Part shown: positions 3,623-53,806 of the stretch, piece after piece | Layout of the letters: every line of letters begins with the position of its first letter | How positions within the stretch are numbered: the first letter of the stretch is position 1 | Assembly: GCA_964512835.1 (NCBI GenBank) | Contig: CAZELA010000001.1 | Coordinates: 233,372-297,371 of the forward strand | Length of the DNA: 64,000 nucleotides | Source of the DNA: an uncultured Candidatus Saccharibacteria bacterium | Lineage (GTDB): Bacteria > Patescibacteriota > Minisyncoccia > Phycocordibacterales > UBA2100 | Direction of reading: 5' to 3' | Made by a program: the position numbers and the translations under genes | The notes under the pieces: generated by a model | What the model was told of the DNA's origin: nothing | Databases searched by the model: none | What the model saw: only the letters and a program-made list of their open reading frames with translations

Positions 3623-3981
3623 AAAAGATCATTATTGCAGTTGTGGCGCTCATGCTTATCGGCGGAGCCGCGGTTTATATATACAAAGCACGGGAAGCCG
3701 CGGAATACGCTGCAATGCCCGCGCCGGCTGTCACGCAGTTGACCGCACCGGCCACCATGGCAGATGTTGCCATGCATGCGGGGGCCGAGAGTTGCTGGAG
3801 TGCCATAGACGGCAATGTATACGATCTGACAGGATGGGTTGCTGAGCATCCGGGTGGTGAGCGTGCAATCCTCTCCTTGTGCGGCAAGGATGGCACCGCT
3901 GCATTTCATGGTCAGCATCGAGACAATAAGGTCCAGGCCGATGTATTGGCCGAGTTCAAGATCGGCACGGTAGCGCAATAA
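3619..3981 (+). CDS. membrane-anchored cytochrome b5-like heme-binding domain protein
   Basis: N-terminal TM helix, then CWSAIDGNVYDLTGWVAEHPGG...AFHGQHRD (cyt b5 HPGG and second His); ATGA overlap with pyrE stop. Confidence 0.7.
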   Translation: MKKIIIAVVALMLIGGAAVYIYKAREAAEYAAMPAPAVTQLTAPATMADVAMHAGAESCWSAIDGNVYDLTGWVAEHPGGERAILSLCGKDGTAAFHGQHRDNKVQADVLAEFKIGTVAQ

Positions 3982-4067
3982 ACGCGCGATTGTGCTCATA
4001 CAACCTCCATAACGTGGAGTGATATACTGAGACAACTAGCAGTCTTAGGAATATAAAGCCTTTATCT

Positions 4068-4556
4068 ATGCGAAATCTTTTGTGGATCATTCTTGCGGTA
4101 ATCATCATCGGCGGCGGTTATTGGTGGTGGTCTATGTCTGCCCAGCCTACAGCGATGGTCAATGAGAACGCCGCATCTCCTGCACCGGTCACGGCCACAA
4201 CAACCCCGGAATCAGCCGTTACTACACCGGCTGCGACACCGTCAACGGTCACCGTTACCTACGACGGTAAAGCGTATTCGCCGGTTGATGTGACGATCAA
4301 GGCGGGTGATACGGTCGTGTTCAAAAACACCTCCGGCAAGAACATGTGGGTGGCGTCTGACGAGCATCCGACGCACACTGAGTTCGACGGTACATCGCGT
4401 GCAACGCACTGCGCAGCAGGATATGCCGGTGAAAAGCCGTTTGATCAGTGCAAGCCGGAAGCCGCAGACTACTCGTTTACGTTTGCTAAGGCGGGAACGA
4501 TTGAGTTCCACGACCACATCAACCCGAGCGCGCACGGTACGGTTACTATTCAGTAA
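4068..4556 (+). CDS. membrane-anchored cupredoxin-like domain protein
   Basis: N-terminal TM, low-complexity linker, then KAGDTVVFKNTSG...SDEHPTH...AKAGTIEFHDHINPSAHGTV resembling the cupredoxin-like/EfeO-type fold. Confidence 0.55.
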   Translation: MRNLLWIILAVIIIGGGYWWWSMSAQPTAMVNENAASPAPVTATTTPESAVTTPAATPSTVTVTYDGKAYSPVDVTIKAGDTVVFKNTSGKNMWVASDEHPTHTEFDGTSRATHCAAGYAGEKPFDQCKPEAADYSFTFAKAGTIEFHDHINPSAHGTVTIQ

Positions 4557-4562
4557 CGCTCT

Positions 4563-4919
4563 ATGAATCGTGATTCAGCGGAAATCATTCTGAGGATAGG
4601 GCTCGCGTTCGCGTTCCTGTATCCGCCGTTGAACGCAGTCGTGGACCCGAACGCCTGGATCGGCTACTTTCCTCCGTTCGTCCGGGGCATTGTGGACGAC
4701 ACGATCCTATTGCACGGCTTCGGCGTCATCGAGGTGATCATTGCGATATGGGTCCTCTGGGGACGGGCGATTTTCTGGCCGGCTCTCGCGGCGTTCCTGA
4801 TGCTTGTCGGTATTGTGGTGCTCGACCGCTCGGAATTCCAAGTTGTATTCCGTGATCTTTCGATCGCGGCGATCGCGCTGTATTTTGCGGTGAAATACCG
4901 ACCCGGCTCGATCCGATAG
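4563..4919 (+). CDS. DoxX-like small integral membrane protein
   Basis: 118 aa, 3-4 predicted TM helices, DoxX-like hydrophobic pattern. Confidence 0.45.
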   Translation: MNRDSAEIILRIGLAFAFLYPPLNAVVDPNAWIGYFPPFVRGIVDDTILLHGFGVIEVIIAIWVLWGRAIFWPALAAFLMLVGIVVLDRSEFQVVFRDLSIAAIALYFAVKYRPGSIR

Positions 4920-23202: not shown

Positions 23203-23362
23203 GAAACGGGGACTCGATCACGAATAAAATCCACGCCGTCGCGATCAAGGGGGACTCGGCCAAGCGCTCGCTTCGTCGCCGTCGCGACGAAGCTCCGTTC
23301 GGCCCTGCTCGCGCATCCCCGTCTACTGACGGGGCCCCAGCGCTCGCTTTCTCGTCCCCGCC

Positions 23363-23416: not shown

Positions 23417-23498
23417 TGGGCAAGGGGGGACTCGAACCCCCAATCCTTACGGAACCAGTTCCTAAGACTGGCGCGTATACCAATTCCGCCACTTGCCC
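23417..23498 (-). tRNA. tRNA-Leu (anticodon TAG), type II, CCA not encoded
   Basis: Manual fold: acceptor GGGCAAG/CTTGCCC, anticodon loop CTTAGGA, long variable arm, T-arm GGTTCGAGTCC. Confidence 0.8.
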
Positions 23499-23573
23499 AT
23501 CTGCACGATATTACACCTTTTCGGCTCGACCGAGCTATCGGTAACTCGCGCCGTAACGCACTATTTTCCTTTG

Positions 23574-23594
23574 CCAATTCCGCCACTTGCCCAT
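23574..23594 (-). repeat. exact 21-bp copy of the tRNA-Leu(TAG) 5' end in its upstream leader
   Basis: CCAATTCCGCCACTTGCCCAT also at 23480-23500; preceded on the tRNA strand by a TATAGT -10-like box. Confidence 0.7.
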
Positions 23595-27263: not shown

Positions 27264-27580
27264 GGCAATGAGAATATCTTGAATAGATTCCCGTGAGGGA
27301 AATCAATACAGGACTGGAGTTTAGGTCGATCCCTGCTTCTCTGGATCAGCTCTGGTTGATACGTAAAAGATACCATGTGAAAAATGATGTGTCAATGAAT
27401 CGTGATTTGTTTGAGGCTGATTCCGAGATGTGGTGCCGGCAAGTATCGAGATGCGACATCGACTACGCTCCATGAGTGGTCAGGGATATTTTCCTCGCCG
27501 CCGCTCGGAAAATTCCACGATTCTGCCTTGCCTGTCGCAAAAGCTTTTGCAACATGGCTCCGGCTCGCACAAAGCGAAAA
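27264..27580 (-). promoter_or_regulatory. probable long cspA 5' leader and promoter region (no convincing ORF)
   Basis: About 300 nt without coding signal between the upstream terminator and the cspA ATG; csp genes classically have long structured leaders. Confidence 0.35.
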
Positions 27581-27584
27581 AACC

Positions 27585-27612
27585 TGGCGCAGGCCAGGTT
27601 TGTTTCGTCTTT
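27585..27612 (-). terminator. terminator of the low-GC hypothetical gene
   Basis: AACCTGGCGCAGGCCAGGTT hairpin with T-run on the minus strand. Confidence 0.6.
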
Positions 27613-27643
27613 GTGCGCCCAATGGGACGTTATCGGAACGGAA

Positions 27644-28168
27644 CTATTGGCAGGAGTCACGCAGATCGCCAGTTAGCCATGTTGCCGATTTTTTTGCCTC
27701 ATCAATATTTCTCAGCTGTAAATTATTTGGAACACCTGCTTGATGGCGCTTTTCTTCGAACTGAGTTTCAGTAAATGCCTGCATCGTTTGACCCGAGTGC
27801 GGGTCAATAACCCACCAGTAGGTTATCGATTCATCGGGGATGCAATTTGAACAATCCTCCATGCGTGGGTGCGGTTTCTCCAGCGGGTGTGTCTTCGCAA
27901 GAACATAGTCGTCATCCCACGCAATTTCAAATATGGATTCGGGAATGAACCCCCCAGCATCACCAATATCCGTGCAATTTACATATACAGCATATGCACT
28001 GCTCCTGTTCAGTTTGCAATGTGAATTTAACTGATATTCATAGTCTGCTAAACCGGGTCCAAAACCACATTTAAGAATAGTGCTGTAAAAAGAGAAACAA
28101 ATAAAAATCCACACGATGCTGGCGCCAATCCAAAAATACTTCGGATTCCGAACGATGGCTTTCAACAT
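27644..28168 (-). CDS. hypothetical membrane-anchored protein, low GC
   Basis: 174 aa, N-terminal TM, Cys-containing; about 45% GC versus 55-58% in flanks. Confidence 0.45.
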   Translation of the reverse strand: MLKAIVRNPKYFWIGASIVWIFICFSFYSTILKCGFGPGLADYEYQLNSHCKLNRSSAYAVYVNCTDIGDAGGFIPESIFEIAWDDDYVLAKTHPLEKPHPRMEDCSNCIPDESITYWWVIDPHSGQTMQAFTETQFEEKRHQAGVPNNLQLRNIDEAKKSATWLTGDLRDSCQ

Positions 28169-28196
28169 AGGAAAACTATGTCACGAAACTGAAAAC

Positions 28197-28390
28197 TTGT
28201 CTGTGCGCCCACTAGGATCCTCCCAAGCGCTCGTATTTTGCCGTCGCAAAATACTCCGCTCGGGCCTGGTTTTGCTATCCCATCTGCTGATGGGCCCCAC
28301 GCAAAACCTTTCGAATCCTGACGCTCGCTTCGCTAGCTGTGGGCGCACTTGTAAACAGAAAACGGCCCTAAGGCCGTTTTCTGATTCAAG
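28197..28390 (-). repeat. tRNA-Lys trailer element
   Basis: Terminator AAAACGGCCCTAAGGCCGTTTTC (28359-28382), inverted acceptor copy (28338-28349), hairpin GTATTTTGC-GACG-GCAAAATAC (28233-28254), direct copy GTGCGCCCAC.AGGAT (28203-28217). Confidence 0.6.
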
Positions 28391-28463
28391 TGCGCCCACC
28401 AGGATTCGAACCTGGGACCGTTCGCTTAAGAGGCGACTGCTCTACCAGCTGAGCTATGAGCGC
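28391..28463 (-). tRNA. tRNA-Lys (anticodon CTT), CCA not encoded
   Basis: Manual fold: acceptor GCGCTCA/TGGGCGC, anticodon loop CTCTTAA, T-arm CCAGGTTCGAATCCTGG. Confidence 0.8.
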
Positions 28464-40953: not shown

Positions 40954-41036
40954 GCGTCGATGGCGGAGTGGTCAATCGCACTTGGCTGTAAACCAAGCGA
41001 CTTCGGTCTGCGCAGGTTCGAATCCTGCTCGGCGCA
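40954..41036 (+). tRNA. tRNA-Tyr (anticodon GTA), type II, CCA not encoded
   Basis: Manual fold: acceptor GCGTCGA/TCGGCGC, anticodon loop CTGTAAA, long variable arm, T-arm GCAGGTTCGAATCCTGC. Confidence 0.8.
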
Positions 41037-41230
41037 CAAACGCAAAAAGAACCCAATTGGGTTCTTTTTGCGTTTGTGCAGCACGAGAGCAGAGTGCTGA
41101 GCACTCTGCGGCAGGATTCGAACGCCGGAGCGATGTGAGCCCAGTAGGGCGAACCGCGAGGCGGTGCCCAGACAAACTTTTGCGACGGCAAAAGTTTAGT
41201 CGAGGGAGAATCCTGCTCGGCGCACAAAGT
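41037..41230 (+). repeat. tRNA-Tyr trailer element
   Basis: Terminator (41045-41070), palindrome GCAGAGTGCTGAGCACTCTGC, inverted T-arm-like CAGGATTCGAAC, hairpin AAACTTTTGC-GACG-GCAAAAGTTT (41174-41197), direct copy GAATCCTGCTCGGCGCACAAA (41208-41228 versus 41020-41040). Confidence 0.65.
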
Positions 41231-41276
41231 GCAAAAAGCCCCTAACCGGGGCTTTTTGCGTGGTACGATTTACCGC

Positions 41277-42579: not shown

Positions 42580-42650
42580 GGGCGATTAGTTTAGTGGTAG
42601 AACAGCGGTCTCCAAAACCGCTAGTGGGGGTTCGATTCCCTCATCGCCCG
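42580..42650 (+). tRNA. tRNA-Trp (anticodon CCA)
   Basis: Manual fold: acceptor GGGCGAT/ATCGCCC, anticodon loop CTCCAAA, T-arm GGGGGTTCGATTCCC. Confidence 0.8.
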
Positions 42651-42652
42651 CA

Positions 42653-42820
42653 ATGATCAAAAAAGACGCGCAAGCGTCTTTTTTGCCAAACATTGCGAGG
42701 CGATGAGGGAATCGAAAGGCGGAGGCGGGGCACCCGCGTACCCGCGGGTCGCCGAGCCAGGGCAGTGACCACTTGCCCGAAGGGCTTAGTGAGTTACGCC
42801 GCTTCCCTCATCGCCCGCAA
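42653..42820 (+). repeat. tRNA-Trp trailer element
   Basis: Terminator AAAAAAGACGCGCAAGCGTCTTTTTT, inverted copy GGCGATGAGGGAATCGAA (42699-42716), direct copy TTCCCTCATCGCCCGCAA (42803-42820); the two copies can pair as a 13-bp stem. Confidence 0.6.
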
Positions 42821-46248: not shown

Positions 46249-46330
46249 GCCGGAATGGCGGAATTGGTATACGCACACGACTCAAAATCGTGCGCCTCAC
46301 GGCTTGTGGGTTCGAGTCCCACTTCCGGCA
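46249..46330 (+). tRNA. tRNA-Leu (anticodon CAA), type II, CCA not encoded
   Basis: Manual fold: acceptor GCCGGAA/TTCCGGC, anticodon loop CTCAAAA, long variable arm, T-arm GGGTTCGAGTCCC. Confidence 0.8.
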
Positions 46331-46507
46331 CACAAAATCAAAAAGCAGGGCATGTCCCTGCTTTTTGATTTTGTGGCACGGAAGTGGGACTCGAAAGCGA
46401 GTCCTGGGCCCCCGCGAGCACGTGGGGATGGACGAGCAGGGCAGAGAAACTTTTTAACGCGACGGCGTTAAAAAGTGTTCTTGGCCGAGTCCCACTTCCG
46501 GCTTTTT
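46331..46507 (+). repeat. tRNA-Leu(CAA) trailer element
   Basis: Terminator palindrome (46335-46371), inverted copy GCACGGAAGTGGGACTCGAA (46376-46395), hairpin ACTTTTTAACGC-GACG-GCGTTAAAAAGT (46449-46476), direct copy GAGTCCCACTTCCGGC plus TTTTT (46487-46507). Confidence 0.65.
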
Positions 46508-48002: not shown

Positions 48003-49547
48003 TTAGACTGATTTTCGTTGCTCCTGCGCAAGCGCCGCACGGATGTGCTTTTTTGCCATGTTTGTTTTTGCGATGTCGTGCCACTTGCGCGACGGTTTGG
48101 CCGAGGCCTTGGTGATTACCTCTACCATGTCGCCGTTTCGAAGTGCGGTATCGAGCGCAACCATTTTTCCGTTCACACGAGCGCCTGACATGCGGTTGCC
48201 GAGGTCGGAGTGCACCGCATAGGCAAAGTCGATCGGCGTCGCTTCCATCGGAAGGTCGATAACGTCGCCCTTTGGTGTGAACACGAAAACGCGATGACTG
48301 AAAAAGTCGCTCTTGAGTGTATCGAGATATTCGCCGGATGCCTCGCCGCCGTGTTGTACGTGTGCGAGTTCCTGCACCCACTCGGGCATGAGCGGCTGCA
48401 GTTCATCCTCTTCCAGAGTCGGTGCTGGTTTGCGCGCGCCGAATCCCGGGAAGAATTGACGTATCCACTCGAGTCCGCCGCGCTTACTGTCGCCGGCCTG
48501 CACGTCTTTGTACGTGAGGTGTGATGCGATGCCGTAGAGCGCTTCGCGATGCTGTGCTTCGGTGCGGAGTTGCATCTCAAGTGCACCGCCGTCGCCGGTG
48601 TAGACCGTCGTGTGAATTGACTGGTAGCCGTTCGGTTTTGGGAACGCAATGTAGTCCTTGATCTTGCCCGGCACCGGTCGCCAATGACCGTGAATGATCC
48701 CGAGTGCCGAATAACAATCAGCGACAGTGGGGAAGATGATGCGCAGTGCCAAGATGTCGTAGATCTTAGTTATGTCCCAGTCTTTGCGTTCGAGTTTTCT
48801 GTAGAGGCTATACACGCCCTTAATGCGCGCTTCGGTGCGGAAATTACGGATGCCGGCATCGGCGAGCTCGCGTTTGAGATCATGCTCGGTCTTTTCGAGG
48901 CGCTTTTCGTTTTCGTTGCGGCGCTCCTTTAATAGCTCGCGGGTCTTTTCGTACTCCTTAGGATGTGCCCACGGGAACGCGGCGTCTTCGAGTTCCTGCT
49001 TTGCCACGGACATACCGAGTCGATCGGCGATCGGTGCATAGATCTCGAGTGTCTCGAGTGCGATACGGGTACGCTTCTCGATTTTCGGTACGTGCTCAAG
49101 CGTGCGGGCATTGTGGAGGCGATCCATCAATTTAATGATGAGAACGCGGATGTCTTTGGCGGTAGCCGCAAACAGTTTGCGAAGCGATTCGGTATGGCGT
49201 TCCATGCCGCGATAGCGCAGTGTGCCGAGCTTCGTGACGCCTTCGACAAGAACGAGCACGTCTTCGCCGAATTGCTCGGATATGGTCTGCGGCTTCACGC
49301 CTGCATCCTCGATGGTGTCGTGTAGTAGGCCCGCTGCAATTGCTGCGGCATCCATACCCACCTGCGCCAGATAAAATCCGACTTCTGCCGTGTGTACAAA
49401 GTACGGGTCGCCTGAGTATCTTTTTTGCGGGCGGTGTGCCTCTTCGGCAAAGTCGTAGGCCCGGGTTACGAGCGATACGTCCTCGGGCGACTTCGACGTC
49501 ATCTCTGAAAGGATGGCTTTCAGCGGCCTCGGAGTGACGGATGTCAT
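48003..49547 (-). CDS. rel: bifunctional (p)ppGpp synthetase/hydrolase, short RelA/SpoT family
   Basis: HD domain HDTIEDAG, synthetase domain, TGS domain; 514 aa, no ACT domain. Confidence 0.85.
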   Translation of the reverse strand: MTSVTPRPLKAILSEMTSKSPEDVSLVTRAYDFAEEAHRPQKRYSGDPYFVHTAEVGFYLAQVGMDAAAIAAGLLHDTIEDAGVKPQTISEQFGEDVLVLVEGVTKLGTLRYRGMERHTESLRKLFAATAKDIRVLIIKLMDRLHNARTLEHVPKIEKRTRIALETLEIYAPIADRLGMSVAKQELEDAAFPWAHPKEYEKTRELLKERRNENEKRLEKTEHDLKRELADAGIRNFRTEARIKGVYSLYRKLERKDWDITKIYDILALRIIFPTVADCYSALGIIHGHWRPVPGKIKDYIAFPKPNGYQSIHTTVYTGDGGALEMQLRTEAQHREALYGIASHLTYKDVQAGDSKRGGLEWIRQFFPGFGARKPAPTLEEDELQPLMPEWVQELAHVQHGGEASGEYLDTLKSDFFSHRVFVFTPKGDVIDLPMEATPIDFAYAVHSDLGNRMSGARVNGKMVALDTALRNGDMVEVITKASAKPSRKWHDIAKTNMAKKHIRAALAQEQRKSV

Positions 49548-49622
49548 CCATTGATACTACTCTGAGACCCGGTTCGGTCAAATCACATGAACTGAAAAGC
49601 GGCGCTCGGAGCGCAGCTTTCC

Positions 49623-49733
49623 TTACTTCTTTTTCTTCGCCGTCTTCTTGTCGGATGATGCCCCCTCCAGCTTATGCGGGTTGTGCATGGGACATGTTTT
49701 TTGACTACAGCGCTCCGGAATCGTTTTTGGTCA
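49623..49733 (-). pseudogene. displaced duplicate of the topA 3'-terminal coding segment
   Basis: Minus-strand translation between stops: PKTIPERCSQKTCPMHNPHKLEGASSDKKTAKKKK versus the topA C-terminus ...TKTIPERCSQKTCPMHNPHKLEGVAKKKK; 29-bp identical core CCCTCCAGCTTATGCGGGTTGTGCATGGG. Confidence 0.7.
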
Positions 49734-49829
49734 CACGTTCGTGTCGTCCCGTCGGACGCCACGACGTGCGACCCCGGCTCAGGATCGCACGCTGCTGCGT
49801 GCGATATCCTTCCGCCTCACAAAAACGAA

Positions 49830-49851
49830 ACACGAGGCGCAGGCCTCGTGT
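49830..49851 (-). terminator. topA terminator hairpin abutting the stop codon
   Basis: ACACGAGGCCTGCGCCTCGTGT then TTTCGTTTTTG on the minus strand. Confidence 0.6.
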
Positions 49852-52044
49852 TTACTTCTTCTTTTTGGCGACACCCTCCAGCTTATGCGGGTTGTGCATG
49901 GGGCATGTCTTTTGGCTGCATCGTTCCGGGATCGTCTTTGTGCCTTCCATCATGAGCGAGTCACATAGCTTGCAGCGAGCTCCCGTGGGTCGGGCTTTGA
50001 TTGCATTCTTACACTTAGGGTAGTTGGAGCACGCGTAGAATAAACCGAATCGTCCGCGTCGTTCCACCATCTCTCCGTCGCTGCAGATATTGCACTTCAC
50101 GCCGGTCTTTGCCTTCGCTTCCTGTTCCGGGTCTTGCTTCACGAATTTGCACTTAGGGAAGTTCGAGCAGGCGATGAACGGTCCGAATCGGCCTTCGCGC
50201 AGGATCAGTTTGCCGCCCTTCGTTTCGCCGCAATCGGGACAGACTTCGCCGATTTCCTTGGGTGGCGGGATCTCACTGCCGTCCTCGCGTCGCGCACCAA
50301 GACACTCGGGGAATTTCTTGCACGACATAAACCGGCCCGCTTTGGAGAGTTTGTATTCCATCGGACCCTTACAGATCGGACAGGGGAATTCCTCGGGGGC
50401 ATCACCCATGCCGGTGATCTTTGCGATCTTCTCCTTGCCTTTGACCGCTTTCTTGAACGGTGTGTAGAAATCTTTGAGAGTTTTCTCGTATTCTCGAGTG
50501 CCGTCAGAGATCTCATCGAGTTCGTTCTCCATCTCCGCGGTGAACGTGTCCGAAATATACTCACCGAAATTATTCTCAATGAACGTGGACACAACGTCGC
50601 CGGTTGCCGTCGGGATCATGGTGCGACCCTGCTTTTCCACATAGCCGCGCGTCTCGAGTGTGCGGATGATCGACGCATAGGTCGACGGTCGACCGATGCC
50701 GCGACTTTCGAGCTCCTTCACAAGACCTGCCTCTGAATAGCGTCCCGGCGGCTGCGTTTCCTTGCCTTCGGTGTGCGCTTCTACGAGATCGAGCGGATCG
50801 TGCGCTGCAACCTTCGGCAGCTCCACGTCTTCGCCGCGGGCATCCGGATCTGCTGCGAGCCAGCCGTCGAATGTAACGCGGGAGCCGTTGGCGGAAAAAT
50901 CGGGGATGGTTGCACCGCTGACGTTTGCGATGATCTTCGTTCGAAGGGTCTTCGCGTCGGCCATTTGACTCGAGAGTGCTCGGGCACGGATGAGTGTATA
51001 GAGCTTCTTCTGCTCTTCGTTGTTGCCGCATGTTGCTTTGTGCGGATTGGTCGGACGTACAGCTTCGTGTGCCTCCTGCGCATTCTTGCTTTTTGATTTG
51101 TATTCACGTGCCTCTACATACGCTGCGCCGAATTCGCTTGTAGCAACTGCAACGAGCGCCGCCTGCGCTTCCTTGGCGAGGTTCGGACTATCGGTTCGCA
51201 TATAGGTGATGTGACCGGCTTCGTAGAGTTTCTGCGCGATACCCATCGTGCGGGACGGAGAGAACCCGAGCCGGGTCGACGCGGCCTGTTGCAGTGTGGA
51301 TGTTGTGAACGGTGCACGCGGCGAGCGTTTTGCTTCGGACTCATCAACGGAAATGACTTTCCAATCTTTTGTGGTCGCCGCCTTGTAGATGCGCTCGGCC
51401 TCTGCCTCGGTCTTCGGCTCCTCGACGCAGGTAACCGTGAATTGCTCTTTTTTCTTTGTTTTGACATCGGCGCTCACCACCCAAAACTTCTCGGGGACGA
51501 ATGCACGGATCTCGCGCTCGCGCTCCATAATGATGCGGAGTGCCGGCGATTGCACGCGGCCGGCCGACAAGCCATACCGCACCTTTTTCCATATGAGGCC
51601 GGAGAGGTCGTAGCCGAAGAGGCGGTCGAGGACGCGACGGGCTTCCTGGGCGGATACGAGTTGCTCATCGATCTTGCGGGGGTGGGCAATCGCTTCCTGT
51701 ACGGCATTCTCCGTAATCTCGTGAAATACGATGCGTTTCGGCTTTTTGAGTCCGATCGTAACGGCCAAATGGTGCGCGATCGCTTCGCCCTCGCGGTCTG
51801 GGTCTGTTGCAAGAATAACCTCAGTCGAGCGACCGGCAATGTCCTTCAGTTCATCGATGATTTTCTGTTTTTCTTTCACGATCTGATAGCGCGGCACAAA
51901 ACCGCCCTCGATATCGACGGCGTCTTTATTGCTTTTCGGCAGATCGCGTATGTGGCCCACCGATGCACGGACCGTGTATCCGTGACCCAGATACTTTTCG
52001 ATCGTTTTTGCTTTGGCGGGGGATTCAACGATGACTAATTTCAT
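49852..52044 (-). CDS. topA: DNA topoisomerase I
   Basis: Toprim plus topo IA core, C-terminal C4 zinc ribbons, Lys-rich tail; 730 aa. Confidence 0.95.
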   Translation of the reverse strand: MKLVIVESPAKAKTIEKYLGHGYTVRASVGHIRDLPKSNKDAVDIEGGFVPRYQIVKEKQKIIDELKDIAGRSTEVILATDPDREGEAIAHHLAVTIGLKKPKRIVFHEITENAVQEAIAHPRKIDEQLVSAQEARRVLDRLFGYDLSGLIWKKVRYGLSAGRVQSPALRIIMEREREIRAFVPEKFWVVSADVKTKKKEQFTVTCVEEPKTEAEAERIYKAATTKDWKVISVDESEAKRSPRAPFTTSTLQQAASTRLGFSPSRTMGIAQKLYEAGHITYMRTDSPNLAKEAQAALVAVATSEFGAAYVEAREYKSKSKNAQEAHEAVRPTNPHKATCGNNEEQKKLYTLIRARALSSQMADAKTLRTKIIANVSGATIPDFSANGSRVTFDGWLAADPDARGEDVELPKVAAHDPLDLVEAHTEGKETQPPGRYSEAGLVKELESRGIGRPSTYASIIRTLETRGYVEKQGRTMIPTATGDVVSTFIENNFGEYISDTFTAEMENELDEISDGTREYEKTLKDFYTPFKKAVKGKEKIAKITGMGDAPEEFPCPICKGPMEYKLSKAGRFMSCKKFPECLGARREDGSEIPPPKEIGEVCPDCGETKGGKLILREGRFGPFIACSNFPKCKFVKQDPEQEAKAKTGVKCNICSDGEMVERRGRFGLFYACSNYPKCKNAIKARPTGARCKLCDSLMMEGTKTIPERCSQKTCPMHNPHKLEGVAKKKK

Positions 52045-52166: not shown

Positions 52167-52700
52167 TTACTTCAACTCACGGGCATGGATATTGCATCGC
52201 TTCTTCGTGCCGAGTCGCACCGTGAAGTGGAAACCGCACTGCTTGTTGTCCTTGCCGCGATGACCGCACTGCTTGTTCCAGTCGCTCGTCATCTTGCCCA
52301 CGAATCCCGGTGAAGGTTCCCCGGCAGGCTCAGCAATGAATCCCTGGTGCGTACCGCTACTCATCTGTAACTCCTTGTGTGTGGTTGGTTCGGAGGGTGG
52401 GGCAGGCGCCCGCTGCTTCTGCGTGGGTGCCACGGCGGGTGTATGCGGAGGCACCTTCGTCTCACGTCGCGAAACGGCTGTTTTCGGCACCCGAGCCGCA
52501 CGGACTGCTGTGCTGCTCCTCGTTGCGGCCGTCACGCCGGGCAGGTGCGTGTGTCGATAGCCGACTATCTGTCCCTTTGTGGCCGACAGCTCGACAGCGA
52601 TCTGTTGGTCCGACATGCCTGTATTCCACAGTGTGGCGATGCGCTCGAGACGTGTAGCGTGATCGAAATCAGTCCACGTTGGCTTCTTTCGTTTTGCCAT
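52167..52700 (-). CDS. GcrA-like domain protein
   Basis: PTWTDFDHATRLERIATLWNTGMSDQQIAVELSATKGQIVGYRHTH resembles the GcrA N-terminal domain; Cys/His-rich C-terminus; GC-rich. Confidence 0.5.
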   Translation of the reverse strand: MAKRKKPTWTDFDHATRLERIATLWNTGMSDQQIAVELSATKGQIVGYRHTHLPGVTAATRSSTAVRAARVPKTAVSRRETKVPPHTPAVAPTQKQRAPAPPSEPTTHKELQMSSGTHQGFIAEPAGEPSPGFVGKMTSDWNKQCGHRGKDNKQCGFHFTVRLGTKKRCNIHARELK

Positions 52701-52831
52701 AATGTCGCTCCGTTGTAGCGGTGTAATGCAACGCAACAGAAGCAACGCAACAATCTACTCACGCGATGCTAACAAATGGAAACGGTGCACGCCAGAAACA
52801 AACAGGCGCTCCATGGGAGCGCCTGCATTCT

Positions 52832-53731
52832 TCATTCAGCCGGAACAAGTGCGTGCAGTCGGTCAGCTTCTGCGATTACCTCACGAGCATGGGCAATCCG
52901 CACCTCGTCATCAGTCGGGGCAGGTAAGCGAGGAATGACGACCGAGTCGATCAGAGCCATGCGCTCTTGAAGAGAGAGCTTTCTGGATCGCGGCCGCTTT
53001 GGTGTAGGCGGCTTCCGCTGTATCGCAACGACCCGCGGGCGGCTGCTCCGTTTCTTGCGCACTCCGCGTGCAAGGTTTTCGGAGCACGTCCAGAACAGTC
53101 TCTCGGCGTCATCCGTGGCTGCATCGCGCATACGGTCAATCTTGCCGAGCACGGCGCATCGGCCGCCGTCGTTGCAGTGCGTAAAGATGCCGAGTTTCTC
53201 GGCGATCTCGTATGCCGTCAGACCTTGCGCGCAACACAGTGCCAGCTCTGCAACGTGACCGATCGTCCATCTCGCTCGATGGCGACCGATCGTTCGCTTT
53301 GAAACTCCGTCAGTTGATCGCACAAAGCGCCGGTCACGCCGATCCCAAAACGCGAGCTCAGCAGCGGAGCATGCGGTGCGCCGGTGAATCGTTGCGCGTT
53401 TGCGGATCTCTGTGTGCGGGTCGGCATATGCGGCAAGAAACGGCAACATGCGTACCATCTTCTGTGCGGTGACGCCCTCGCTCCACATGCGCGCAAGCGC
53501 AATGTCCGCTTCGTGTGACCATCCCGGCAGGGAACGGCTCCAAAATGCGCGCTCAGCATCGCTGTGTGCCGCTTTGCGCAATCGGTCGATGCGACCGAGC
53601 ACGGCACTCTTTCCCTTATCGCGATATCTGTGGAGAACATCAAACTGTGCGGCGACCTCGGTGGCGCTCAAGCCCTCGTGCCACGCCCGCACGAGCGCTA
53701 CGTCGCGTTCGTGTGTCCAGACACTGTGCAT
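52832..53731 (-). CDS. protein with three tandem GcrA-like N-terminal domains
   Basis: Three repeats of W-T/S-x-E/H...L...W.EG.SA/T..IA...SAVLG+IDR+R; GC-rich. Confidence 0.5.
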   Translation of the reverse strand: MHSVWTHERDVALVRAWHEGLSATEVAAQFDVLHRYRDKGKSAVLGRIDRLRKAAHSDAERAFWSRSLPGWSHEADIALARMWSEGVTAQKMVRMLPFLAAYADPHTEIRKRATIHRRTACSAAELAFWDRRDRRFVRSTDGVSKRTIGRHRARWTIGHVAELALCCAQGLTAYEIAEKLGIFTHCNDGGRCAVLGKIDRMRDAATDDAERLFWTCSENLARGVRKKRSSRPRVVAIQRKPPTPKRPRSRKLSLQERMALIDSVVIPRLPAPTDDEVRIAHAREVIAEADRLHALVPAE

Positions 53732-53806
53732 GGTGATGCCTCGTACTTGTGAACTGTTTGAACGATACACCCCGGCGAGGGGTATGCAATCCGCTTAGAA
53801 AAAAAG

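Follow-up and report, generated by a model that had tools for sequence, protein, structure and literature searches.

A small structured element behind topA and tRNA genes of Paceibacteria, probably an integrative element that replaces the ends of its target genes

Why should a topoisomerase gene be followed, beyond a terminator, by a second copy of its own last codons? The question is raised by topA, the gene of a type IA topoisomerase, in a 64-kb stretch of a patescibacterial genome (contig CAZELA010000001.1; the whole stretch is hereafter called the window), in which the gene, its trailer and their neighbours all lie on the minus strand. An initial annotation, made from the letters alone, had described the second gene end, with a terminator and two hairpins between gene and copy, and all of these are present in the sequence. 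The explanation that we favour, and consider probable, is that Kaiserbacteria/Paceibacteria harbour a family of miniature integrative elements that are non-autonomous, site-specific and gene-end-replacing, one copy of which forms the topA trailer. The family, which is shared by topA and by tRNA genes, would be of an integrase-less integrative kind or of a kind resembling miniature inverted-repeat transposable elements (MITEs).

A repeat search gives a direct repeat of 67 nt, at 49663-49729 and 49874-49940, whose copies are 88% identical and have a spacing of 211 nt. The inserted unit starts near the T/K codons of topA and reaches as far as the final base of a structured core (…GTGACC), and the last 29 codons and the stop of topA, whose protein ends in ...GTKTIPERCSQKTCPMHNPHKLEGVAKKKK*, come from it (here and below the asterisk is the stop). 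The insert had been put at about 120 bp, a value that is correct for the gap between the topA stop and the copy; the inserted unit, however, measures 211 bp, because the new 29-codon end and its stop belong to it, as does the terminator. The two sides of the junction read GGCA|CAAAG and GTGAC|CAAAA. The second copy, with its lead-in, reads [GTG TGA] PKTIPERCSQKTCPMHNPHKLEGASSDKKTAKKKK* (49730..49623), hence with an in-frame TGA ahead of it. A stretch coded identically in both ends does exist, although it spans 22 codons (KTIPER...LEG) and not the 16 first given; the tail and the stop differ.

Between the gene and the copy, the terminator is followed by the two hairpins of the core, stem-loops 1 and 2 (SL1 and SL2). 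Inside SL1 there is a 9-bp hairpin, ATCGCACGC-AGCA-GCGTGCGAT (49805-49784), and the tip of SL2 is CGTCC-GACG-GGACG (49758-49745). A homologous terminator hairpin, with compensatory changes, is found in other topA-linked copies. The coordinates of all these features are collected in Table 1.

The topA 3′ regions of relatives were aligned to find the ancestral C-terminus. We considered 80 orthologous topA loci, 62-93% identical, from one-genome-per-species assemblies of Kaiserbacteria/Paceibacteria (Patescibacteria) relatives; a further set consisted of 80 metagenome loci pulled out with the core pattern. The orthologous loci place the window in a Candidatus Kaiserbacteria-like member of the Patescibacteria. 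A second topA end starting from the same codon (GT|KTIPERC) is present in 12 of the 80 orthologous loci (L001, L003, L018, L023, L025, L031, L036, L041, L049, L061, L066 and L074), one of which, L066, carries two such duplicates in tandem. The stretches between the copies can be aligned as a single family, in which a terminator precedes GTTTTTGT(C/G) and a core of ~90 nt, with GTGACC as its end, follows. Empty sites are found in L002 and L004 (~90-92% topA identity), where a single topA end has a long tail, EGTAKASKKIKTK and EGTPGAAKKTSKKK, respectively. In L002 the single end is followed by a GC-rich stretch and a TTGACC…TAGTAT promoter region, as is the downstream copy of the window, and in L004 by a terminator and different sequence. 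The filled relatives carry a short upstream tail (EGVAKKKK*, EGVKKKK* or EGVKIKK*). Because the tails at the empty sites match the downstream copy and the filled relatives have the short tail upstream, the downstream copy is the native, ancestral end, and the translated end was brought in by the insert, together with the terminator and the hairpins. The proposal that the locus is the footprint of an insertion restoring the end of its target gene is hence borne out by the empty sites.

Stages of decay are also recognisable among the relatives. The displaced copy is frameshifted in L018; L014 retains SL1, with most of SL2 and the displaced copy gone; L026 retains an element-type tail and a terminator fragment, with the rest gone; L009 and L073 retain little beyond the terminator of the element and its T-run. 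Insertions are shared within sub-clades (L018 and L023 with the remnant in L009, L025 with the remnant in L014), and in the clade of the window itself (90-93% identical) filled and empty genomes are interleaved. An assembly artefact, that is, a collapsed or duplicated repeat, which the initial annotation had set against its own proposal, is ruled out by the recurrence of the duplicate at the same codon, with diverged sequence, in at least 13 independent assemblies; the duplicate is due neither to chance nor to assembly.

A different insert was observed in L076, a metagenome-assembled genome labelled as Sungiibacteriota, in which (3626-4746) a 950-bp insert lies between duplicates of the topA end whose starting codon is an earlier one (NSLMMEGTKTIPERC). 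This insert holds a SocA/Panacea antitoxin-domain protein and a small upstream open reading frame (ORF) on the opposite strand, and no core. The topA 3′ end is hence a hotspot for inserts of more than one kind.

The two topA ends can also be compared as coding sequences. Counted over 12 genomes (the frameshifted L018 was left out), the differences between copy and copy number 24, 19 and 124 at the first, second and third codon position, respectively, and 107 differing codons are synonymous against 23 that are non-synonymous. In the window, 21 codons were compared, and each of the eight differences falls on a third position and is synonymous. Since the differences are almost only of this type, both ends have evolved as coding sequence; neutral drift of an untranslated copy after a duplication in place would not give such a pattern. 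There are two possible histories: either the ends diverged in separate lineages before they met, or both were used in turn by means of reversible insertion. Lineage-specific residues are common to both ends (Q in the clade of the window, V in L066, RPD in L041 and L061), and any donor would therefore be a fairly close relative. A nearest-neighbour analysis of the 60-nt topA copies with respect to foreign or local origin met segments too short and too saturated to discriminate.

The consensus fold of the core was obtained with RNAalifold, and a covariance model was built from a seed of 11 topA-linked cores plus the core behind tRNA-Tyr of the window. In the consensus, SL1 contains a conserved internal motif, GNC-G-GA-GCG … CGC-GA-GNC, with a tandem G·A, and its loop is usually AGCA; SL2, closed by GGTCGC … GTGACC, consists of a long stem that varies in sequence, the tip of which is often CGACGG (the GACG loop of the initial annotation). 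Compensatory changes are found in 26 of the 34 pairs of the seed alignment. The structure statistics were taken from an alignment of 33 copies, itself fitted to the covariance model: in it 93.4% of the cells are paired, versus 65% in shuffles and 31-48% with the partners slid, changes on both sides occur in 32 of the 34 pairs, and one G·U of the SL2 closing stem is kept in 25 copies out of 33. Because G·U pairs outnumber A·C pairs (56 versus 11), the structure belongs to the gene-sense strand. A secondary structure conserved on one strand, over a variable sequence, is what marks a folded single-strand attachment (att) site, and the modelled core has this property. Precisely, the topA copy of the window is predicted to fold as a Y-shaped junction, in which the T-run at 49827-49820 forms the closing stem with the displaced copy at 49729-49722 (-41.4 kcal/mol as DNA, z = -6.9). 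The flanks of the core are complementary over at least 8 bp in 39 of 110 copies, versus 7.6% of mismatched controls.

The covariance model matches the topA core (49729-49820) with 90.9 bits. It gives seven matches in the window, all in the orientation of the gene that precedes them, 33 in the 80 relatives and 73 in the metagenome loci. Most lie 20-300 nt behind tRNA genes, and 48 of the 72 tabulated metagenome matches lie at most 310 nt downstream of a same-strand tRNA, with 13 amino-acid specificities represented. The trailers of tRNA-Tyr, tRNA-Trp, tRNA-Leu(caa), tRNA-Leu(tag) and tRNA-Lys in the window, and dozens of trailers elsewhere, are matched by this one model, so the earlier suggestion that the topA trailer and the tRNA trailers are tied together holds: the inserts make up a single family, structured and orientation-specific, which is widespread in Paceibacteria. 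In Rfam at the gathering threshold only tRNAs score in the window, and the permissive mode, run over the elements, gives nothing better than E = 0.0099; a known RNA family is excluded by both modes. Full-text literature searches found no description of the element in Patescibacteria, and the family is apparently undescribed. A paper on group I introns in patescibacterial tRNA genes has as its subject introns of the anticodon loop.

A core lies behind five of the seven tRNA genes of the window. Units at tRNA genes have the order a–T–a′–core–a″, where a is the tRNA from GGTT|C-R-A-N-T-C-C… to the 3′ end, T the trailer with its terminator, a′ an antisense copy of a (…GGANTYGAA) and a″ a direct copy from C-R-A-N-T-C-C… to the tRNA 3′ end, at times extended by trailer and terminator; the core, placed between a′ and a″, ends in …GTGAC. 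Together, a, T and a′ form a single long perfect hairpin with its centre at the terminator loop. The unit behind tRNA-Tyr may serve as an example, with its antisense T-loop copy at 41110-41122 and its direct 3′-end copy plus terminator at 41208-41261. The junction lies either in the T-loop or at the encoded CCA end, the latter being a second class (GCAC|CA… versus GTGAC|CACAA…). Where a and a″ mismatch, in tRNA-Lys and tRNA-Trp of the window, a′ agrees with a; a and a′ therefore travel as a pair, with a″ as the decaying native remnant.

Copies of tRNA ends were counted at the 224 tRNAs with sufficient downstream sequence. A direct 3′-end copy is found at 42 and an inverted one at 29 of the 62 tRNAs with a core; the corresponding values for the 162 tRNAs without a core match are 19 and 22, and 134 of these have neither. 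Among the coreless tRNAs with a direct copy, 11 readable loci were inspected, eight of which hold divergent cores in the same layout and three the same core below the model threshold. The tRNA targets cover at least 13 amino-acid specificities. The direct duplications, from 17 to >70 nt long, contain the gene end, and the flanking inverted repeats vary with the target. Whole units are found in tandem arrays in L031, L087 and L206, as would be expected if new units enter the functional site that an insertion regenerates. From one species to another, the same tRNA carries different core subfamilies; some close relatives, and some orthologous tRNAs, have the core, while in others it is missing or reduced to decayed remnants.

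Other cores, missed by the model, were observed in the same slot between antisense and sense tRNA-end copies, for example CGCGGGCCGCAGCCCCCGAAGAGGGGGCGAAGGTTTCGAG… (L016 14200-14375 and 15230-15400; L019; L021; L068; L214; L222). The a–T–a′–core–a″ layout is accordingly more general than one core family. It can carry cargo genes as well: in L066 (15367-21000), one mini-unit behind tRNA-Leu(caa) precedes 5.3 kb of cargo, which holds a short-chain dehydrogenase together with two class II aminoacyl-tRNA-synthetase-like genes. The stretch ends with an antisense copy a′, a 72-nt unrelated spacer X and a tRNA 3′-end copy a″, in the layout a–T–…–a′–X–a″.

A variant core, type B, consists of GTGAG, a variable hairpin and CAAGGCCGGAG … GTGAC. 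It lies antisense and in frame in a membrane-protein ORF in L229 (~600-700), in the tail of a ParB-like gene in L031 (11380-11471), on both sides of a 5S rRNA gene, beside partial 5S duplicates, in L224 (10015-10356), and nested in other copies in L031 and L267 (3480-3650). The type B copies in ORFs and 5S fragments have no consistent target or target-site-duplication motif. Type B and the nesting represent the behaviour of a selfish element, similar to that of Rickettsia palindromic elements (RPEs).

Table 1. Positions in the window of the topA gene, of the parts of its insert, of the downstream flank and of the cores behind tRNA genes
Feature	Position	Strand	Basis
topA, type IA topoisomerase, 730 aa	52044..49852	-	ORF list; 80 orthologous loci
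Whole inserted unit, 211 nt	49730..49940	-	Repeat spacing; empty sites L002/L004; layout in 12 further genomes
Surrogate topA 3′ end KTIPERCSQKTCPMHNPHKLEGVAKKKK, stop at 49854-49852	49852..49938	-	Short V(A/K)KKK tail as in filled L001/L003, not empty L002/L004
Intrinsic terminator of the element: 11-bp stem, CTGC loop, tail CGTTTTTGTG	49828..49853	-	Terminator scan
Closing stem, 5′ strand CGTTTTTG	49820..49827	-	Pairs with first bases of displaced copy; minimum-free-energy fold
Core hairpin SL1: GGC-G-GA-AGG … CCT-GA-GCC, tandem G·A	49776..49816	-	Consensus fold and covariation
Core hairpin SL2: GGTCGC … GTGACC, conserved G·U in closing stem	49729..49773	-	Consensus fold and covariation
Displaced native topA 3′ end, now untranslated, (P)KTIPERCSQKTCPMHNPHKLEGASSDKKTAKKKK*	49623..49729	-	Tail like empty-site relatives; flank like L002
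Native terminator-like hairpin GCGCTC-C-GAGCGC and T-run after displaced end	49593..49617	-	Read from sequence
Promoter-like site TTGACC-16-TAGTAT of next gene	49554..49581	-	Marks native downstream flank; motif also after single topA end in L002
RelA/SpoT-like ORF, next gene after topA trailer	49547..48003	-	ORF list
Core behind tRNA-Tyr (40954-41037)	41120..41207	+	70.8 bits; repeat D3
Core behind tRNA-Trp (42580-42651)	42714..42800	+	Antisense copy 42691-42714, direct copy 42800-42820
Core behind tRNA-Leu(caa) (46249-46331)	46393..46486	+	~40-bp palindrome through terminator, direct copy 46487-46505
Core behind tRNA-Lys (28463-28390)	28221..28312	-	Covariance model
Core behind tRNA-Leu(tag) (23498-23416)	23258..23345	-	Direct copy decayed
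Seventh core, after tRNA-Lys-3′-like fragment (27627-27613) and terminator palindrome	27478..27568	-	58 bits; downstream of DUF3997 ORF

How could such a unit have reached topA? According to the reading that we favour, a 211-nt unit would have recombined with topA at the T/K codons of ...GT|KTIPERC, bringing the last 29 codons and stop, a terminator, a short sequence complementary to the target and a core of ~90 nt ending in GTGACC. The topA gene thereby stays intact, and its native end, its terminator and the promoter of the next gene have been pushed 211 nt downstream. The unit would move as a small circle or hairpin, its antisense segment being paired with the sense one and stacked on SL2. 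Because the junction is at the base of SL2 and the antisense segment can pair with the adjacent sense segment, a single strand could in this way form a duplex that imitates the target and has the crossover at a three-way junction at its base. A trans-acting recombinase, encoded elsewhere in the genome, would then exchange one strand, and replication would complete the event. The single-strand, folded-att detail of this scheme is tentative; we regard it as possible and put it well below the reading of which it is a part.

Several points weigh against this reading. Site-specific integration, as proposed by the initial annotation, agrees with the anatomy, from which it is deduced, whereas no tyrosine or serine recombinase is found in the window or enriched near the 73 metagenome copies. 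In fact, the 40 ORFs of the window, searched against Pfam, contain no recombinase, transposase or reverse transcriptase (RT) domain and are housekeeping genes only, the 291 clustered ORFs near the 73 copies give only housekeeping clusters and no enriched protein family, and no autonomous relative was found in the 80 genome loci, the 80 metagenome loci or a viral collection. In that collection a 15-mer scan gave mostly chance matches and a gapped pattern three spurious ones; its only real locus, L087, has three tandem units and looks like host DNA. Distal tRNA-end repeats of the kind that mark large islands were found only in L066, and no circular or single-stranded form of the element was seen. 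A further difficulty is that nearly every tRNA species is colonised, yet the 3′ end of one tRNA would wreck another: a step that captures the end of the target is needed, and the scheme above has none. Neither this scheme nor simple homologous recombination explains the capture; a copy-back step, of retro or repair type, could do so, but there is no RT. Moreover, the left half-sites (GGTT, GGCA, GCAC) resemble the element end GTGAC only weakly, the antisense segment at topA, 8-9 nt long and overlapping the terminator T-run, could be partly fortuitous, and the residues shared by both topA ends fit co-evolution within a lineage, or duplication in situ, better than import from a distant donor.

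By analogy with the guide of IS608 and with bridge RNA, a circle or hairpin of ~200 nt with a sense and an antisense copy of its target might instead pick its site by pairing (9-23 nt) and not by protein recognition, being inserted by a host or trans-acting single-strand enzyme; were it to re-template its guide and its surrogate end on new targets, the spread of one core over nearly all patescibacterial tRNA genes, and to topA and 5S rRNA, could be accounted for. We think this rather unlikely, and give slightly less credit still to a RecA-dependent single crossover of the Campbell type, by which a small circle or transformed DNA would enter and leave through 20-100 nt of homology among naturally competent Patescibacteria, with the core as cargo or stabiliser. 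The homology is indeed at or above the usual RecA minimum (~20 nt in tRNAs, 67-100 nt in topA), no recombinase was found, the flanking direct repeats permit excision as a circle, the synonymous-only divergence at topA could be that of a donor allele next to a recipient allele, and unrelated inserts, such as the toxin-antitoxin module of L076, do lie between topA-end duplicates. The latter duplication, however, starts at another codon, has no core and looks like a different type of event; the antisense target copy, the fixed T-loop junction and the reach of the core to >15 targets are left unexplained by RecA, and the structured core, with its strand-specific covariation, ends exactly at the junction in every target. 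It is improbable, in our estimate, that the core is a structured RNA beneficial to the host or a 3′-trailer device (for processing, termination or regulation of the tRNA and topA transcripts), the gene-end copies being pairing partners and not scars. A strong terminator stands between gene and core, with no promoter-like site before the core, and no Rfam family matches; copies are nested, lie antisense inside ORFs and next to 5S rRNA fragments, and both the patchy presence with decayed remnants and the differing subfamilies at the same tRNA speak against such a device, for which the constant gene orientation at the five window tRNA genes, the conserved G·U pairs with the tandem G·A motif, and the better folding of the sense strand of the topA copy as RNA (-64.3 versus -57.1 kcal/mol for the antisense strand) would argue.

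More improbable again is an origin of the retroelement type, in which the hairpin of a terminated transcript primes an RT over the gene end, giving the antisense copy, the RT then moves over to the core RNA as its template, and target-primed or homology-driven repair puts the cDNA into the genome, leaving a long target duplication. Such a process would account for each unit carrying the end of its own target: the sense copy with the terminator corresponds to the 3′ end of a primary transcript, the palindrome has the terminator loop at its centre and spans trailer and gene end exactly, and the duplications, as with target-primed insertion, are long and differ in length. Yet no RT is found, be it in the window or around other copies, the template of the antisense copy is the gene with its trailer and not a CCA-tailed mature tRNA, the topA copies either differed from the start or were both kept under coding selection, and there is no poly(A)-like or other hallmark of retro-insertion. 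What remains we find hardly credible, namely the pair of variable and template repeats (VR … TR) of a diversity-generating retroelement, a retron non-coding RNA, or the local assembly artefact, against which the recurrence described above speaks. The layout does resemble, superficially, a VR … TR pair at a gene 3′ end, but the mismatches between the window copies (G>A, C>T, A>G, A>C, C>T, C>T, G>A, C>T, T>G) are not confined to the adenines of either copy; this mixed, synonymous substitution spectrum and the lack of an RT gene rule out a diversity-generating retroelement. The inverted repeats around a structured region recall the a1/a2 of a retron and are present as flanks, but no RT lies downstream, the next gene being RelA/SpoT-like or a housekeeping gene.

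We compared the family, in the reading as a gene-end-replacing integrative element, with known systems. Elements that use tRNA sites by means of a tyrosine integrase are alike in the crossover in the T-loop or 3′ end, the identity block up to the gene end, the replacement end, the direct repeat left behind and the arrays; sublocation classes of tRNA att sites (T-loop, 3′ end) were reportedly set out by Williams in 2002. Direct repeats from the crossover to the gene 3′ end, with a functional replacement end, are present both at topA and at tRNAs. The differences are a whole length of 170-210 bp, a hairpin core abutting the crossover, an antisense copy, more than 15 targets including a protein gene, and no integrase: none is found within the 211-nt unit, among the 40 window ORFs or in the L066 cargo, nor is one enriched near the 73 copies. 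Integrase elements of this type cross over in a 7-nt loop between symmetric stem arms (T-loop or anticodon loop); here the junction in tRNA copies reads GGTT|C-R-A-N-T-C-C, and the topA site (GGCA|CAAAG) has no obvious symmetric arms. Cis-mobilisable elements (CIMEs) are integrase-less, att-flanked elements mobilised in trans. Those of Streptococcus share with our family the lack of autonomy, the att-like repeats at a gene 3′ end and an enzyme presumed to be elsewhere; they are, however, kilobase-sized deletion derivatives of integrative and conjugative elements, while the unit described here is little more than an att site and has no known autonomous parent.

In the CTX attP(+) and integron attC systems, a trans-acting tyrosine recombinase exchanges one strand only. 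The CTX site (used by XerCD) and attC resemble the element in a strand-specific conserved structure over variable sequence, an inverted-repeat mimic of the target, an asymmetric integrated form, the enzyme in trans and small cassettes with or without genes (cf. L066). They differ from it in that gene ends are here replaced and in that there is no IntI platform or array at one attI; dif-like XerC/D arms and R″/R′ boxes (RYYYAAC/GTTRRRY) are absent from the stem ends in the core alignments, and the window has no IntI, Xer or Y1_Tnp gene. The palindrome-associated transposable elements of IS200/IS605 and the REP/RAYT (repetitive extragenic palindrome and its transposase) pairs are likewise small, hairpin-rich, orientation-specific and devoid of a transposase of their own, and the IS608 guide, which lies within the element, reads its target by pairing. 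These, however, insert 3′ of a fixed tetra- or pentanucleotide, make no target duplication and involve no gene ends, their guides have 4 nt and not 9-23 nt, and no Y1 transposase was seen in the window, where the duplications are long; the left flanks of the element vary as well (GGTT, GGCA, GCAC). With RPEs the family shares insertion in frame in ORFs and in RNA-gene fragments (type B in L229 and L224), nesting (L031, L267) and tiny, symbiont-like genomes; there is no relation in sequence, and neither the duplication or replacement of gene ends nor a preference for tRNA T-loops is known from RPEs. A classical MITE, a derivative of a DDE transposon with terminal inverted repeats common to all copies and a short target-site duplication of constant length, does not fit either, as the inverted repeats vary with the target and the duplications, 17 to >70 nt, contain the gene end.

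Patescibacteria have some of the smallest bacterial genomes, and here five tRNA genes out of seven and an essential topoisomerase gene carry a selfish-looking element. The element shows how gene ends can be turned over: L026 appears to keep an element-borne topA end after the loss of the rest. It also accounts for many of the 'tRNA gene fragments' that trouble annotation in these lineages. If it is indeed the antisense copy that programmes the site, the element would be an integration module of very small size with its target set by base pairing, and more than 100 natural variants are at hand for comparison.

Some further observations concern the tRNA genes of the window. Behind tRNA-Lys (27478-28463, minus strand) a first unit and the displaced 3′ end are followed by an ORF of 174 aa with a DUF3997 domain (28168-27644), a third tRNA-Lys-3′-like fragment, a terminator palindrome and a second core; insertions may have piled up here one after another, the ORF being carried along as cargo, in an order that departs from a simple model. 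At the 5′ end of tRNA-Leu(tag), the first 21 nt are perfectly repeated 94 nt upstream (23480-23500 and 23574-23594, minus strand), each copy having its own -10-like box in front of it. To judge from the repeat, it looks like a 5′-end counterpart of the 3′-end replacement, an insert with a new promoter and 5′ end; its 73-nt spacer is unlike the core. Downstream of tRNA-Cys (32173-32101) there is a partial second tRNA-Cys copy (~32072-32006, minus strand), not called as a tRNA, in which the D/anticodon stem and the T-arm/acceptor are recognisable and the anticodon region is replaced or expanded (ctgcccagttaaacaaagggcg).

Around topA, the terminator scan lists the GCGCTC-C-GAGCGC hairpin that follows the displaced end on the plus strand only. 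Directly upstream of topA lie two adjoining GcrA-like paralogues of 192 and 312 aa (52167-53770, minus strand), the larger of which (52832-53770) holds an internal repeat, D4, at 53118-53155 and 53568-53605.

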